From: Alphaproteobacteria bacterium UBA3635
Lineage (GTDB): Bacteria; Pseudomonadota; Alphaproteobacteria; Rs-D84
Length of the DNA stretch: 64,000 nt
Direction: 5' to 3'
NCBI GenBank assembly: GCA_002373935.1
Contig: DFKW01000004.1
Coordinates: 27,704-91,703, forward strand
Shown: positions 29,625 through 45,701 of the stretch, piece after piece
Numbering within the stretch: position 1 is the first letter of the stretch
Layout: the number at the start of each line of letters is the position of its first letter
Program-made: the position numbers and the translations under genes
The notes under the pieces: model-generated
The model's database searches: none
Told to the model about the DNA's origin: nothing
Seen by the model: the letters and a program-made list of their open reading frames with translations, nothing else

Positions 29625-30125
29625 TTATTTATTGAAAATTTCGCCGCGAAAGTCCGGGTCACCCAAAAAATTATATGAACAACGATATGTGCACAGGTTT
29701 GCACATTCGGCGGTATTGCGGAACTCACCACGATATGCCCATTTTGTCGGTGTTGTTTTATGTATATCGGATGTAGTCGCAATTATTTTACACCAACAAT
29801 GCGGACCGCGTTTTTCCGCCGCAATAAACATCCCATCGGTGTTTTTGTCGTTGCATGTACTGGTCCCCAGGACATTTGTTTCATCATAAAACGCGCGCCA
29901 ATCACCCGGATTTAATCCCGTTGCATGATTTTTCGCACTTTCGTCCAATTGGTAATAGCCCGAACCAAATCGAAACCAATCGATATTCGTGTCATCAACA
30001 TATTGCGGAATATTTTCCGCCACCGCATCGGCAAAATCGTTCGTGACATTTCCATATTCGTCGTATTCAGCAAACGCCGGTACGCATACAAACATCAATA
30101 AAAACGCGATAATTTTATTTTTCAT
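29625..30125 (-). CDS. Secreted Cys-rich hypothetical protein (CWC...W...CxxxCxxxC...DFR domain)
   Basis: Signal peptide; C-terminal domain paralogous to the end of 42109-43644. Confidence 0.75.
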   Translation of the reverse strand: MKNKIIAFLLMFVCVPAFAEYDEYGNVTNDFADAVAENIPQYVDDTNIDWFRFGSGYYQLDESAKNHATGLNPGDWRAFYDETNVLGTSTCNDKNTDGMFIAAEKRGPHCWCKIIATTSDIHKTTPTKWAYRGEFRNTAECANLCTYRCSYNFLGDPDFRGEIFNK

Positions 30126-30195
30126 AATTCATATTATATCACAAAAAATATAATAAAAAAAGGGGGGCATGCCCCCAATTTTTATTTTTTTATTT

Positions 30196-41195: not shown

Positions 41196-41272
41196 GGATG
41201 TTTAGCTCAGTTGGCTAGAGCATCTGCTTTACACGCAGAGGGTCAGGGGTTCGAGTCCCTTAACATCCACCA
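41196..41272 (+). tRNA. tRNA-Val(TAC)
   Basis: GGATGTT acceptor stem, TCTGC-TTTACAC-GCAGA anticodon arm, GTTCGAGTC, CCA. Confidence 0.96.
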
Positions 41273-42108: not shown

Positions 42109-43644
42109 ATGAAAAAAATTTTATGTGCGATGTTGGGAATAATCGGGATGTTCATAACACCGGCTTACGCATTACCGGCGGGGTATACAGAGTTAGAGTA
42201 TATCAAATCCACCGGGACACAGTATATTGACGATATAATAAAACCTAATCAAAGATATTCATTTGAAATTAAATACAAGCATACTGTATCAGAAGGTTAT
42301 CAACCATTGTTTGCATTATACGATGGTACTTCAGGTTATTCGTATGGTTTTATGGAAGGTAGTGCAGAAAAAGGAAATTATGCCTATAGCGGCAATAGCG
42401 AAACTTTTACATTAGCATATGATACCAGCACTATATATACATTATATTACGATGGAATAAATAAAAAGGTGTTTCGTAATGGAACAGAAATTGTAGATTT
42501 TAGTGATACAACAGGTTTTTCTGGAACAACAGGTGTTGCACCAAGACTTTTCCAAATAAGAAACGGAGAACATTATAGTAGTACTTTTAGTTATTCGTTT
42601 AAAGGTTACGCATACAGTTTTAAGGTATACGATGATAATAATAATTTAGTTCGCAATATGATTCCTGCTAAACGCAACAGCGATAATGCGATTGGTATGT
42701 ACGATACGGTTGGCGGGCGGTTTTATGAAAATGCAGGTTCGGGTTCTTTCATTGCCGGCCCGGTTGCAGAAATCAAAGTTGCAACCACAAAGTATGTGGA
42801 AACGCAGTTTAGTGATTTGGGCACGCGGTTGGCGGCGGCGGTGGCGACAGTGAATACGGTCGTGACCCAGACGATTGCCCAGGCGGGGAGTATTGCAACT
42901 TTGCAGAGTGGCAAGCAAACCCGCCCAGATGAAACCTGTCCCGCCGGTAAAAAGTGCCTGCTGGTTGAGGGGACCGACGGCCAACCCCATTGGTATGAAA
43001 TATTTGACCCGATAAACCGCTGGTTAGAGGCATTTTTCAAAACAAACCCGAACGGACAACTTGTCGATGGTGGCGCAGATTTCCGCCGGTGGCAGGGTAA
43101 CCCAGATTTCCGCGAAACATATATTGATGGTTCAACATCGGTCTATGCCCGTCAATGGACGGCGGCATCGCCCGCACGCTCGATTGGTGGCTTGTATCAA
43201 ACATTGCCTGCGGGCGACATTGAAAACGCCGGCACATGGGCGGTTGAATTTGATGGCACCGAGGGCGACGGCGTAAACGCGGGCGCGGTGTATGGTATTG
43301 CAAAATGCACGTCTGTGGTGGGGACAATTGCCACAAAATTGACATCGGCGCAAGAGAGTGCGTTCTATACATTACCGGCACCGGTGGGTCAAACGGACAA
43401 TGCAAATTATCCGCGGGAAAACTTTAAAAACTGCTGGTGCAAGATGACGGCGGTGGGTGTGCCTGGTGCGGATGGAACGGCTGCAAACGGTTCTGTGTAC
43501 CCTGTAAATGCGTCGTCCTCTGCGTGGGTCTTCAGCCCCACGTTCGGTTCGGCCGCCGCTTGTGCGGGCAACTGTGCGTACGACTGCGCGTACCGCGTCC
43601 GTGCTAACGCAGATTTTAGAACCGCAGTTTTTGGTTTGGATTGA
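42109..43644 (+). CDS. Secreted modular adhesin/fibre-like protein with Cys-rich C-terminal domain (candidate DGR target)
   Basis: GGGGAG RBS; signal peptide; YTELEYIKSTGTQYID...GMYDTV..FYENAGSGSF beta-rich domain; coiled-coil plus KQTRP..CP..KKCLLV; CWC..WVF..CAxxCAxxCAxxV..DFR end. Confidence 0.82.
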   Translation: MKKILCAMLGIIGMFITPAYALPAGYTELEYIKSTGTQYIDDIIKPNQRYSFEIKYKHTVSEGYQPLFALYDGTSGYSYGFMEGSAEKGNYAYSGNSETFTLAYDTSTIYTLYYDGINKKVFRNGTEIVDFSDTTGFSGTTGVAPRLFQIRNGEHYSSTFSYSFKGYAYSFKVYDDNNNLVRNMIPAKRNSDNAIGMYDTVGGRFYENAGSGSFIAGPVAEIKVATTKYVETQFSDLGTRLAAAVATVNTVVTQTIAQAGSIATLQSGKQTRPDETCPAGKKCLLVEGTDGQPHWYEIFDPINRWLEAFFKTNPNGQLVDGGADFRRWQGNPDFRETYIDGSTSVYARQWTAASPARSIGGLYQTLPAGDIENAGTWAVEFDGTEGDGVNAGAVYGIAKCTSVVGTIATKLTSAQESAFYTLPAPVGQTDNANYPRENFKNCWCKMTAVGVPGADGTAANGSVYPVNASSSAWVFSPTFGSAAACAGNCAYDCAYRVRANADFRTAVFGLD

Positions 43645-43650
43645 TGAAAC

Positions 43651-43678
43651 TTGCATATTAGAAATATTTGGCTATAAT
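43651..43678 (+). promoter_or_regulatory. Sigma70-type promoter of metG
   Basis: TTGCAT-16-TATAAT. Confidence 0.55.
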
Positions 43679-43709
43679 CAAATCTGAACTGTAAAAAGGA
43701 TTTGGTATA

Positions 43710-45701
43710 ATGGCACAGAAATATTTAATTACATCGGCGTTGCCCTATGTGAACAATGTGTTACATATTGGGCATTTGATTGGATGTTTATTGCCAAGTG
43801 ATGTTTATGCGCGTTTCTGTCGCGCGTTGGGTCGCGATGTGTTATATATTGGTGGTTCTGATGAACATGGAACCCCGTCCGAGGTTGGTGCCCAAAAAGA
43901 AAATATGCCGGTCGAAGATTATGTCGAAAAATACCGCGCAAAACATCTGGACGCGGTGCGGGATTTTAATTTGTCTTTTGATTTATATGGTCGCACGCAT
44001 ACAAAATTGCACGAAAAATTAATTCATGAATTGTTTGAACGGTTGGACTCGATGGGTATGGTTTATGAAAAATCGTCAATGCAGCCGTATTCAATAAATG
44101 AAAAAAAATTCTTGGCGGACCGGTATGTTATTGGGACTTGCCCGCGGTGCGGATATGATGGCGCGTATGGGAACGAGTGCGATAAATGTGGCGCGTCACT
44201 GGACCCGGATCAATTGATAAATCCGCACAGTGCCGTTGACCCGTCGTCCCCGGTTGAAATGCGTGAAACAAAGCATTTGTATTTTAGATTAAGTGCCATG
44301 CAGGATAAATTACGCGCATGGATAAATTCACGCCAGGGGTGGCCAAAAACCGCAATCGCAATCGCAAATAAATGGTTGGACGAAGGACTGCGCGATAATC
44401 CAATTACTCGTGATTTGAAATGGGGAATTCCGGTTAATAAACCCGGTTTCGAAGACAAAGTTTTCTATGTTTGGTTTGATGCGCCGTGGGGTTATGTTTC
44501 AATTTCCCAGGCGGCAACGGACAATTGGGCCGATTGGTGGAAAAACCCGGATTGTAAATATGTGGAATTTATGGGCAAAGATAATGTATCTTTCCATTCT
44601 GTATTTTTCCCGGCCCAAGAATTGGCAATGGATGATGGATGGAAAACCGTCGATGTGTTAAAAGCGTTCAATTTTATGAATTTTAATGGTGAAAAAATTT
44701 CTAAATCACGCGGCAACGGTATATTTTTAGACAATGCGTTATCAATCGCGCCAAGTGATTGCTGGCGGTATGCGTTGCTGGCATCGGCACCGGAAACAGA
44801 CGATACCGATTTCACCGTGCAAAAATTTGCAGAAATCGTGAATAAAGATTTGAACGGTATGTTGGGGAACTTTGTTTCACGCGTTTGCAAACTGACCGAG
44901 AAAAATTTTGGATTGGTGGTCCCAAATCAAAGTTCAAAGTTCAAAGTTCAAAGTTCAGTTATAGCAGATAAAATAAACAAAAAATTAAACGATTTAACCA
45001 CTGCATTGGATCAATGCGAATTTCGTGCGGCGATTTTTGCGCTGCGTTCGCTGTATGCGATTGGTAATGAATATATGACGGAAACGGCACCTTGGGCATT
45101 GGTCAAAGACGGTAAAATGGACGATGCCGGTTCTGTGTTGAATAACTGTTTTCAAATGATTGATTTATTTGCACGCGTGTCGGCACCGTTTATGCCAACT
45201 ACCGCCGCAAAGATGCAAAATATTTTTGGCGCGACGCATGATTTGTCGTGGCCGACATGTTTTGAACACAGAATCGCAAACGGTGAAAAATTTGCCGTGC
45301 CGGAAAATCTGTTCGAAAGAATTGACGATGCGCGTGTCGCAGAAATCAACGAAAAATATTCGGCAAAGCCAAAAACAGCCGCCCCGGTTGTCGCAAAAAT
45401 TTTGGATATTAAATCACATCCCCGGCGCGATGATTTACACATTTTGACGGTGGACAGTGGCAACGACAAATTACAAATCGTTTGTGGTGCGCCAAATGTG
45501 CGCGTGGGGATGGTTGGGGTTTTGGCACCGGTTGGGTGCGTTTTACCGGGCATGACAAAACCATTGGCGGCGCGTAATGTCGGCGGGGTAAAATCCAATG
45601 GCATGATGTGCAGTGCGCAAGAATTAGGTGTTGGGGGGGATGCCACAAAAATTATTGAATTGGATGATACATATAAAATTGGTTCGGAATATAAAGGATA
45701 A
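43710..45701 (+). CDS. metG: Methionine--tRNA ligase with C-terminal OB-fold tRNA-binding domain
   Basis: LITSALPYVN..LHIGH, CPRC..CDKC, YVWFDAP, GKDN..FH, KISKS. Confidence 0.96.
   Translation: MAQKYLITSALPYVNNVLHIGHLIGCLLPSDVYARFCRALGRDVLYIGGSDEHGTPSEVGAQKENMPVEDYVEKYRAKHLDAVRDFNLSFDLYGRTHTKLHEKLIHELFERLDSMGMVYEKSSMQPYSINEKKFLADRYVIGTCPRCGYDGAYGNECDKCGASLDPDQLINPHSAVDPSSPVEMRETKHLYFRLSAMQDKLRAWINSRQGWPKTAIAIANKWLDEGLRDNPITRDLKWGIPVNKPGFEDKVFYVWFDAPWGYVSISQAATDNWADWWKNPDCKYVEFMGKDNVSFHSVFFPAQELAMDDGWKTVDVLKAFNFMNFNGEKISKSRGNGIFLDNALSIAPSDCWRYALLASAPETDDTDFTVQKFAEIVNKDLNGMLGNFVSRVCKLTEKNFGLVVPNQSSKFKVQSSVIADKINKKLNDLTTALDQCEFRAAIFALRSLYAIGNEYMTETAPWALVKDGKMDDAGSVLNNCFQMIDLFARVSAPFMPTTAAKMQNIFGATHDLSWPTCFEHRIANGEKFAVPENLFERIDDARVAEINEKYSAKPKTAAPVVAKILDIKSHPRRDDLHILTVDSGNDKLQIVCGAPNVRVGMVGVLAPVGCVLPGMTKPLAARNVGGVKSNGMMCSAQELGVGGDATKIIELDDTYKIGSEYKG

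Follow-up and report, generated by a model that had tools for sequence, protein, structure and literature searches.

Diversity-generating retroelements (DGRs) rewrite part of a target gene: a reverse transcriptase (RT) copies the RNA of a template repeat (TR) into cDNA, misreading adenines, and the cDNA replaces the variable region (VR) of the target. Legionella targets of the LdtA type belong to a cellular DGR and are exported proteins with a C-terminal VR. The DGR of Bordetella phage BPP-1 consists of mtd with its VR, avd, TR, and brt. Efficient homing in BPP-1 needs a hairpin as well as the initiation of mutagenic homing site (IMH), a constant 3' segment common to the TR, and a low residual activity is left without the hairpin (PMC3240598, in part). 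In a survey of DGRs the IMH was nearly universal and hairpins were present in 34% (PMC5758913, in part). The accessory gene avd was present in 74%, the accessory classes being avd, HRDC, MSL, and CH1, the last of 160-169 aa (PMC5758913). One cassette can also serve several non-adjacent chromosomal genes, as with the remote TvpA-like targets of Treponema denticola (PMC5758913). The window analysed here is a stretch of 64,000 nucleotides (contig DFKW01000004.1, positions 27,704 to 91,703) from Alphaproteobacteria bacterium UBA3635. One of its genes (42109..43644, +) ends in a segment that is confirmed, on sequence grounds, as a DGR variable region, the product of DGR mutagenesis. Unlike BPP-1, the assembly of the window genome contains no cassette. 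Mutagenic retrohoming likely wrote this VR, from a cassette of TR, 108-aa open reading frame (ORF), and RT that the lineage likely once had and later lost, and the tip of the protein is probably frozen.

The evidence that carries this finding is an adenine-specific match to a TR. The window genome's own assembly is called G000 here (858 kb, 15 contigs, 96.5% complete). Congener genomes carry similar handles (G013, G018, G058, G172, G174, G180, and G188), and loci of relatives are given as L053, L016, and so on. The VR core (43525..43609, +), which runs from W473 to N500 and is of the G018 type, differs from the TR of G018 at 17 of the 26 TR adenines and at none of the 59 other positions (Fisher p 1e-11). 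When it is compared with four other TRs there are 1-5 differences outside the adenines. G018 is another species, with flanking genes only 84-87% identical to those of the window genome. The TR that the preliminary description had guessed was found letter for letter in G018 and in two metagenome contigs, in each case beside a DGR-type RT. Among relatives, 35 cassette loci were examined and the 20 TR/VR pairs within the locus DNA were compared. In these cognate pairs 289 of 512 TR adenines are altered, as are 12 of 1775 other positions, and the adenine changes fall on codon positions 1, 2, and 3 in 166, 119, and 4 cases. The adenine-only match, the cognate pairs, and the RTs beside the TRs thus identify the segment as a product of DGR mutagenesis, as the preliminary description had proposed. 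Adenine-only differences and a C-terminal VR are both features of the BPP-1 system. In G018 itself, the target gene (L016:5374-7407) has two VRs, one internal and one C-terminal, and both equal the TR at all non-adenine positions.

The TR cores of the species compared are nearly alike, with just 1-6 differences in 85 nt. In the TR, variable residues are specified by 12 AAC/AAT codons together with ACG and AGT, and Cys, Ala, Trp, Val, Phe, and Arg have adenine-free codons. Mutagenesis therefore spares the scaffold and can still reach about 2e15 protein variants (15^12 x 4 x 4).

Composition had first drawn attention to the segment. It was described as having 9 adenines in 99 nt (43510-43608), all at codon positions 1 and 2, with no codon ending in A, and as containing three tgy-gcg-NNC-NNC units. 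A recount agrees, with 4, 5, and 0 adenines at codon positions 1, 2, and 3, and the three units are present as written. The GC content at third codon positions is 0.79 in this segment. The two parts of the gene that precede it have 0.27 and 0.54, and the final 11 codons have 0.18. Across 503 long ORFs of the genome, 37 of 198,596 33-codon segments have at most 9 adenines and no A-ending codon; 15 of these are a run of N, 20 are in three ORFs with hydrophobic stretches, and two are the VR segment. The composition is rare, not unique, and hence suggestive and not decisive. It is the TR match that decides for a VR. The VR had been drawn from 43510 to 43644. The TR-like part of that span holds at 43525-43609, whereas 43610-43641 is a different, A/T-rich tail. 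The VR ends 11 codons before the stop and is thus 3'-terminal in its target.

The cassette itself can be studied in relatives. With Pfam RVT_1, RTs were found in 14 of the 41 genomes of the first sample of relatives. Most of those from the same genus have 336-380 aa, and several have an AAC-rich repeat and then a 108-aa ORF in front of them. One of these RTs as query matched 57 of 200 congeners. The usual layout is TR, 108-aa ORF, and RT, without Avd, and a TR was seen in 34 of the 35 cassette loci. In relatives the cassette stands at 21 different sites among 25 distinct mappable loci, with no more than about 2.3 kb between its TR and a VR. These cassettes are chromosomal and have many remote targets, unlike BPP-1. 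If one cassette serves several non-adjacent chromosomal genes, as seems likely here, this is shared with Treponema denticola. Unlike that system, many remote VRs here have no tail that matches the TR, and nine genomes have VRs and no TR form.

By profile and motifs, the cassette RT belongs to the DGR clade. Like BPP-1 Brt, it has about 340 aa and contains the GxxxSQ and YxDD motifs. Its profile has 8ub7, which we take to be the BPP-1 RT, as best match in the Protein Data Bank (PDB) (E 2.5e-62; next match 2e-26), and it matches phrog_1423 (E 1e-101). A tree of RTs was set aside as poorly resolved, with overlong outgroup branches and six of 15 inner branches open. There are other RTs in these bacteria. 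G013 possesses a second kind (L002:231-2349), whose upstream ORF is weakly bAvd-like (E 0.019, below the cut-off), and no Cys-rich TR was seen beside it. Larger RTs, with open frames of about 490-990 aa and no TR nearby, occur in relatives from the genus and order (L004 and L010-L013) and are probably of the defence type.

A further difference from BPP-1 is that bAvd was not found in the five genomes searched, and the conserved 108-aa ORF is present between TR and RT instead. In 22 cassettes this ORF shares 54-94% identity with its G018 counterpart, and it had no match in Pfam, NCBIfam, PHROG, or PDB. For it the ESM Atlas gave unnamed viral clusters (0.95-0.97) and, in 44% of one cluster, a Phi29 single-stranded DNA-binding protein label, which is a lead only. 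A homologue stands directly behind the RT of Caudoviricetes sp. vir525, an archaeal virus (BK063673; L100:4492-4779; E 1.3e-28). The locus in vir525 is DGR-like and has the nearest RT among annotated phages (44.5% identical). As in the relatives, no bAvd match was found, here among four neighbouring genes scanned. Its gene upstream of the RT encodes an Mtd-like tail protein, unlike the Cys-rich domain of this family. Since the homologue accompanies the RT beside so different a target, the ORF appears to travel with the RT lineage independently of the target. It likely assists the RT as a putative accessory protein.

The window genome possesses targets without this machinery. G000 has 13 copies of the Cys-rich domain. 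Six of them have TR-like VR cores with 0-4 non-adenine changes against the TR, and all six carry the diagnostic letters of the G018 type. Two further VR tails lie at contig ends, and the remaining copies show the signature weakly or not at all. Searches of G000 by blastn, an ungapped adenine-tolerant scan, Pfam RVT_1, tblastn, and custom hidden Markov models turned up no TR, RT, or accessory gene. Every assembled VR of G000 is followed by more than 10 kb of DNA without a TR. At the places where the cassettes of L053 and of G188/G058 stand, the VR-bearing gene of G000 and its downstream neighbour are joined on a single contig, with 300-500 bp and no cassette between them, and the cassette site of G018 is also empty. 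G000 is not alone in this respect. The scaffold pattern matched 17 of 257 congeners, eight with a TR form and nine, G000 included, with VR forms only. No RT was found in the five VR-only genomes that were searched with the RT query. The preliminary description held that the tip is being diversified by a remote TR of the same genome, and it expected a near-copy beside a DGR-clade RT elsewhere in the genome. Neither is borne out: no such near-copy was found, there is no TR, RT, or accessory gene in the assembly, and the homing tail and hairpin are lacking.

The 3' end of the window VR differs in a second way from complete systems. In relatives, as in BPP-1, a constant 3' segment is common to the TR and the adjacent VR. 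For cassette-adjacent targets the TR/VR identity continues through the F-R-x-A-V-F-G codons, over 110-125 nt in 18 of 20 pairs, and six cassette-adjacent VRs have 0-1 mismatches to the TR in a tail of 24-25 nt. In the window VR, TR-like identity stops at 43609. The divergent tail (43610..43641, +) replaces the constant segment, the putative IMH, that other paralogues possess. Over 25 nt it shows 10-11 differences from five paralogues in G000, which have 0-5 among themselves, and 8 from the G018 TR. An IMH was thus not found in the window copy, nor was an inverted repeat or hairpin found in 43560-43760 before the next gene. Inverted repeats stand behind four other VRs that were scanned. VR-bearing paralogues of G000 (C7, C11, the start of C14, and the end of C1; also C6 and C8) have downstream non-coding blocks in common, with GC-rich palindromes, and the spacers that surround the G018 cassette are filled with repeats related to these.

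A missing tail is not peculiar to the window copy. Of the 16 remote VRs examined in five TR-bearing relatives, 11 mismatch in the tail at 4-17 positions. For the cores of these 11, no TR matches as well as the resident one in six cases, while the resident TR is tied in three and beaten in two, in a comparison that rests on seven columns and in which kin share letters by descent. That these cores track the resident TR suggests that cores alone may be overwritten. The target gene is a DGR product and works like a remote DGR target. As TR, RT, and IMH were each looked for and not found here, it does not belong to a complete DGR in G000. With no cassette in the assembly, two empty sites, and no homing tail or hairpin, the window copy is probably orphaned and not a live target in trans.

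The target gene (42109..43644, +; ATG at 42109, TGA at 43644) encodes a protein of 511 aa in a mosaic family of paralogues and matches no Pfam or NCBIfam family at threshold. Residues 1-21 (42109..42171, +) form a predicted Sec signal peptide, recognised by eye in the translation from its basic start, hydrophobic core, and A-Y-A end. An AT-rich N-terminal domain follows (42172..42768, +; residues 22-220). It is repeated and shuffled among paralogues, matches no family, and gave no significant match in a PDB sequence search. The conserved middle module (42769..43014, +; residues about 221-302) is common to nearly all family members, has tblastn matches on 12 contigs of G000, and had no PHROG match. 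The protein ends in the Cys-rich domain (43231..43641, +; residues about 375-511). A predicted export signal and a C-terminal VR are shared with the LdtA-type targets of Legionella, which carry DUF1566 (Lcl_C, CLec2). Unlike these, the Cys-rich domain gives an hhalign probability of only 0.6% with Lcl_C, and no Lcl_C match was found in G000.

The domain is widespread. Its profile finds 2003 clusters (50% identity) at E<=0.001, in proteins of about 130 to over 6000 aa that have up to seven copies each. Among them are giant proteins (P0015, P0016, and P0135) of 4750-6218 aa with 4-7 copies, and the Listeria-Bacteroides repeat is also present in many small members (11 of 63). Six cysteines, C400, C442, C444, C485, C489, and C493, are 97-100% conserved in 295 rows, and W377, G396, W473, and R504 are near-invariant as well. 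No match was found in Pfam, NCBIfam, or PHROG, and none of significance in PDB with two domain profiles. In the ESM Atlas the best feature score was 0.82, below the meaningful level. A helix is suggested by the three invariant cysteines that stand at i, i+4, and i+8 in the VR. In the TR, C-A-N-N is read three times over, which gives a period of four residues in which fixed Cys-Ala is followed by a variable pair. A helical wheel places the centre of the variable codons about 100 degrees away from the cysteines, which, provided that the segment is helical, fits a display of the variable residues on the free side of a pinned helix. The top Cys pairs in covariation were C444-C493, C442-C489, and C400-C485. 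Covariation was rejected as evidence for disulfides, the Cys columns having 0-8 substitutions in 295 rows. Joint losses were seen only for C444/C493 and C400/C493, two each, and C442 and C489 never vary. The defensin-type cysteine-stabilised alpha-beta motif also combines CxxxC at helical spacing with CxC in one small domain, a likeness of spacing only, drawn from sequence. Here the order is reversed, a third cysteine would be on the helix, and the domain is larger.

The target gene lies between a tRNA-Val(TAC) gene (41196..41272, +) on the left and metG (43710..45701, +), which we take from its motifs to encode methionyl-tRNA synthetase, on the right. The spacer to metG (43645..43709, +) is short and has no inverted repeat, and similar DNA precedes metG in G180. 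The tRNA-Val gene stands directly before metG in G180, G172, and G188, with no target gene, and in G018 and G174 a family gene without the Cys-rich domain is found between them. The target locus is thus itself mobile or mosaic. Elsewhere in the window, a small ORF (29628..30128, -; G000 C14:57331-57831) contains a second copy of the Cys-rich domain, with ordinary codons that are not TR-like. It is a "frozen," non-diversified family member.

Several points weigh against the loss of the cassette and could be read as signs of one that is present in the organism, missing from the assembly, and still diversifying the tip in trans. In addition to the narrow base of the core comparison above, 16 of the 30 contig ends of G000 lie in or beside family genes (on C1, C2, C3, C5, C7, C8, C9, C11, C12, C13, C14, and C15), with C1 ending and C14 starting in one and the same VR tail. 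An assembly of this kind might have lost a small cassette contig. Zero non-adenine changes in the core against the living TR of G018 argues for recent writing, and remote VRs are usual in TR-bearing relatives. The metagenome run X1, which contains 0.96 of the window's words, also has, among the contig pieces listed against the G018 cassette, an accessory and RT contig about 83% like that of G018 (depth 13.4) and a TR-like piece with five differences (depth 8.8). The same RT contig is present in run X21 (depth 7.5), where the share of the window's words is 0.00, and a co-resident organism is therefore its most likely source, although such a share is no proof of absence and 296 further pieces fall outside those listed. 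A live cassette is unlikely on balance. Relatives keep a TR much nearer to a VR than the 10 kb of TR-less DNA behind the VRs of G000, and these own VRs carry 0-4 non-adenine changes. The window copy also lacks the common tail and the hairpin, both of which BPP-1 needs for efficient homing (PMC3240598, in part). It is possible, if less probable than writing by a lost cassette, that the VR never met cDNA at this locus and came by gene conversion from a paralogue that was once a true target. From 43000 up to the tail the mosaic gene is mostly identical at 38-49 of 50 nt to paralogues C8a and C6, the junction at 43610 is sharp, and the gene is absent at this place in three of five relatives, while the family gene of the other two lacks the Cys-rich domain. 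However, each assembled paralogue equals the window VR at only 7-12 of the 26 variable sites, where eight are expected for independent draws with the letter frequencies of the cognate pairs. No assembled paralogue is therefore the donor of the window VR.

A different question is whether the domain is an ordinary DGR variable protein after all, with a highly divergent C-type lectin fold. The VR starts with W-V-F and ends in an invariant F-R, and the VR ends of lectin targets are loosely of this kind. Roux et al. describe annotated VR domains as systematically C-Lec and uncharacterised ones as probably new variants (PMC8144416, in part), and CLec2 and CLec3 were at first unrecognisable by alignment according to Wu et al. 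(PMC5758913, in part). Nevertheless, a lectin fold seems rather improbable. The alignment of 295 domain rows gave hhalign probabilities of 0.6% with Lcl_C and 0.1% with FGE-sulfatase, the CLec1 domain of the Treponema denticola targets (PMC5758913), against 83% between those two families as a positive control. No match to BPP-1 Mtd or to the Mtd-like target of vir525 was found by profile, no Pfam lectin family was found in any of 63 members, and the cysteine spacing points to a helix. CLec3 and immunoglobulin classes were covered through the Pfam and PDB searches only. The Cys-rich domain is thus probably not a lectin fold, in keeping with the preliminary description, which saw no obvious C-type-lectin motif in it and proposed that it may be a new scaffold. 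An origin without a retroelement, in which GC-rich codon use and ordinary positive selection acting on loops would have produced the pattern, has next to no chance. The adenine-poor segments in three unrelated ORFs are what could be said for this explanation. The G018 TR match, in which synonymous sites are included among the 59 unchanged positions while the flanks are only 84-87% identical, and the rarity of non-adenine differences in the cognate pairs refute it.

The history of the window VR under a lost cassette can be outlined. The lineage would have carried the cassette and later lost it, and while present, one cassette may have served many scattered paralogues in trans. Since the window copy has no matching 3' tail or hairpin, its VR likely came from a homology-driven overwrite of the core alone, by cDNA or by a paralogue. 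The protein would be a secreted or surface ligand-binding tip, in which the CxxxCxxxC helix may be pinned by disulfides to a small sheet bearing CxC, with the variable pairs on the free side. It would likely help the bacterium to attach to a partner cell, or to evade phage or antibodies. Candidatus Enterousia (order Rs-D84) is the probable host. This lineage is described as partner-dependent and as possessing many hypothetical membrane proteins, and the parts of the main text cited here do not mention retroelements (PMC12306168, in part). In the literature searched, no paper was found that joins "diversity-generating retroelement" and "Enterousia," and none of the titles listed concerned a DGR on a Cys-rich scaffold, while the supplementary unclassified VR groups (PMC5758913, PMC8144416) could contain the family.

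Together these observations allow a tentative picture of "hit-and-run diversification" in sub-megabase gut alphaproteobacteria. A mobile, Avd-less cassette might randomise one face of a disulfide-pinned, non-lectin helix on a modular surface family that is spread over the genome. It might hop among loci and lineages, overwrite remote cores without a matching IMH, and often be lost, so that frozen repertoires are left behind. Genomes with VRs only and remote VRs without a tail are missed by searches that start from the RT, and Roux et al. state that their own method misses remote targets (PMC8144416, in part). The need of remote targets for an IMH, and how often DGRs leave fixed repertoires, become testable questions. 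If a DGR does diversify small Cys-pinned domains in a family as large as 2003 clusters, nature would have a second way to generate massive sequence variation, and the domain would be a compact scaffold for libraries.
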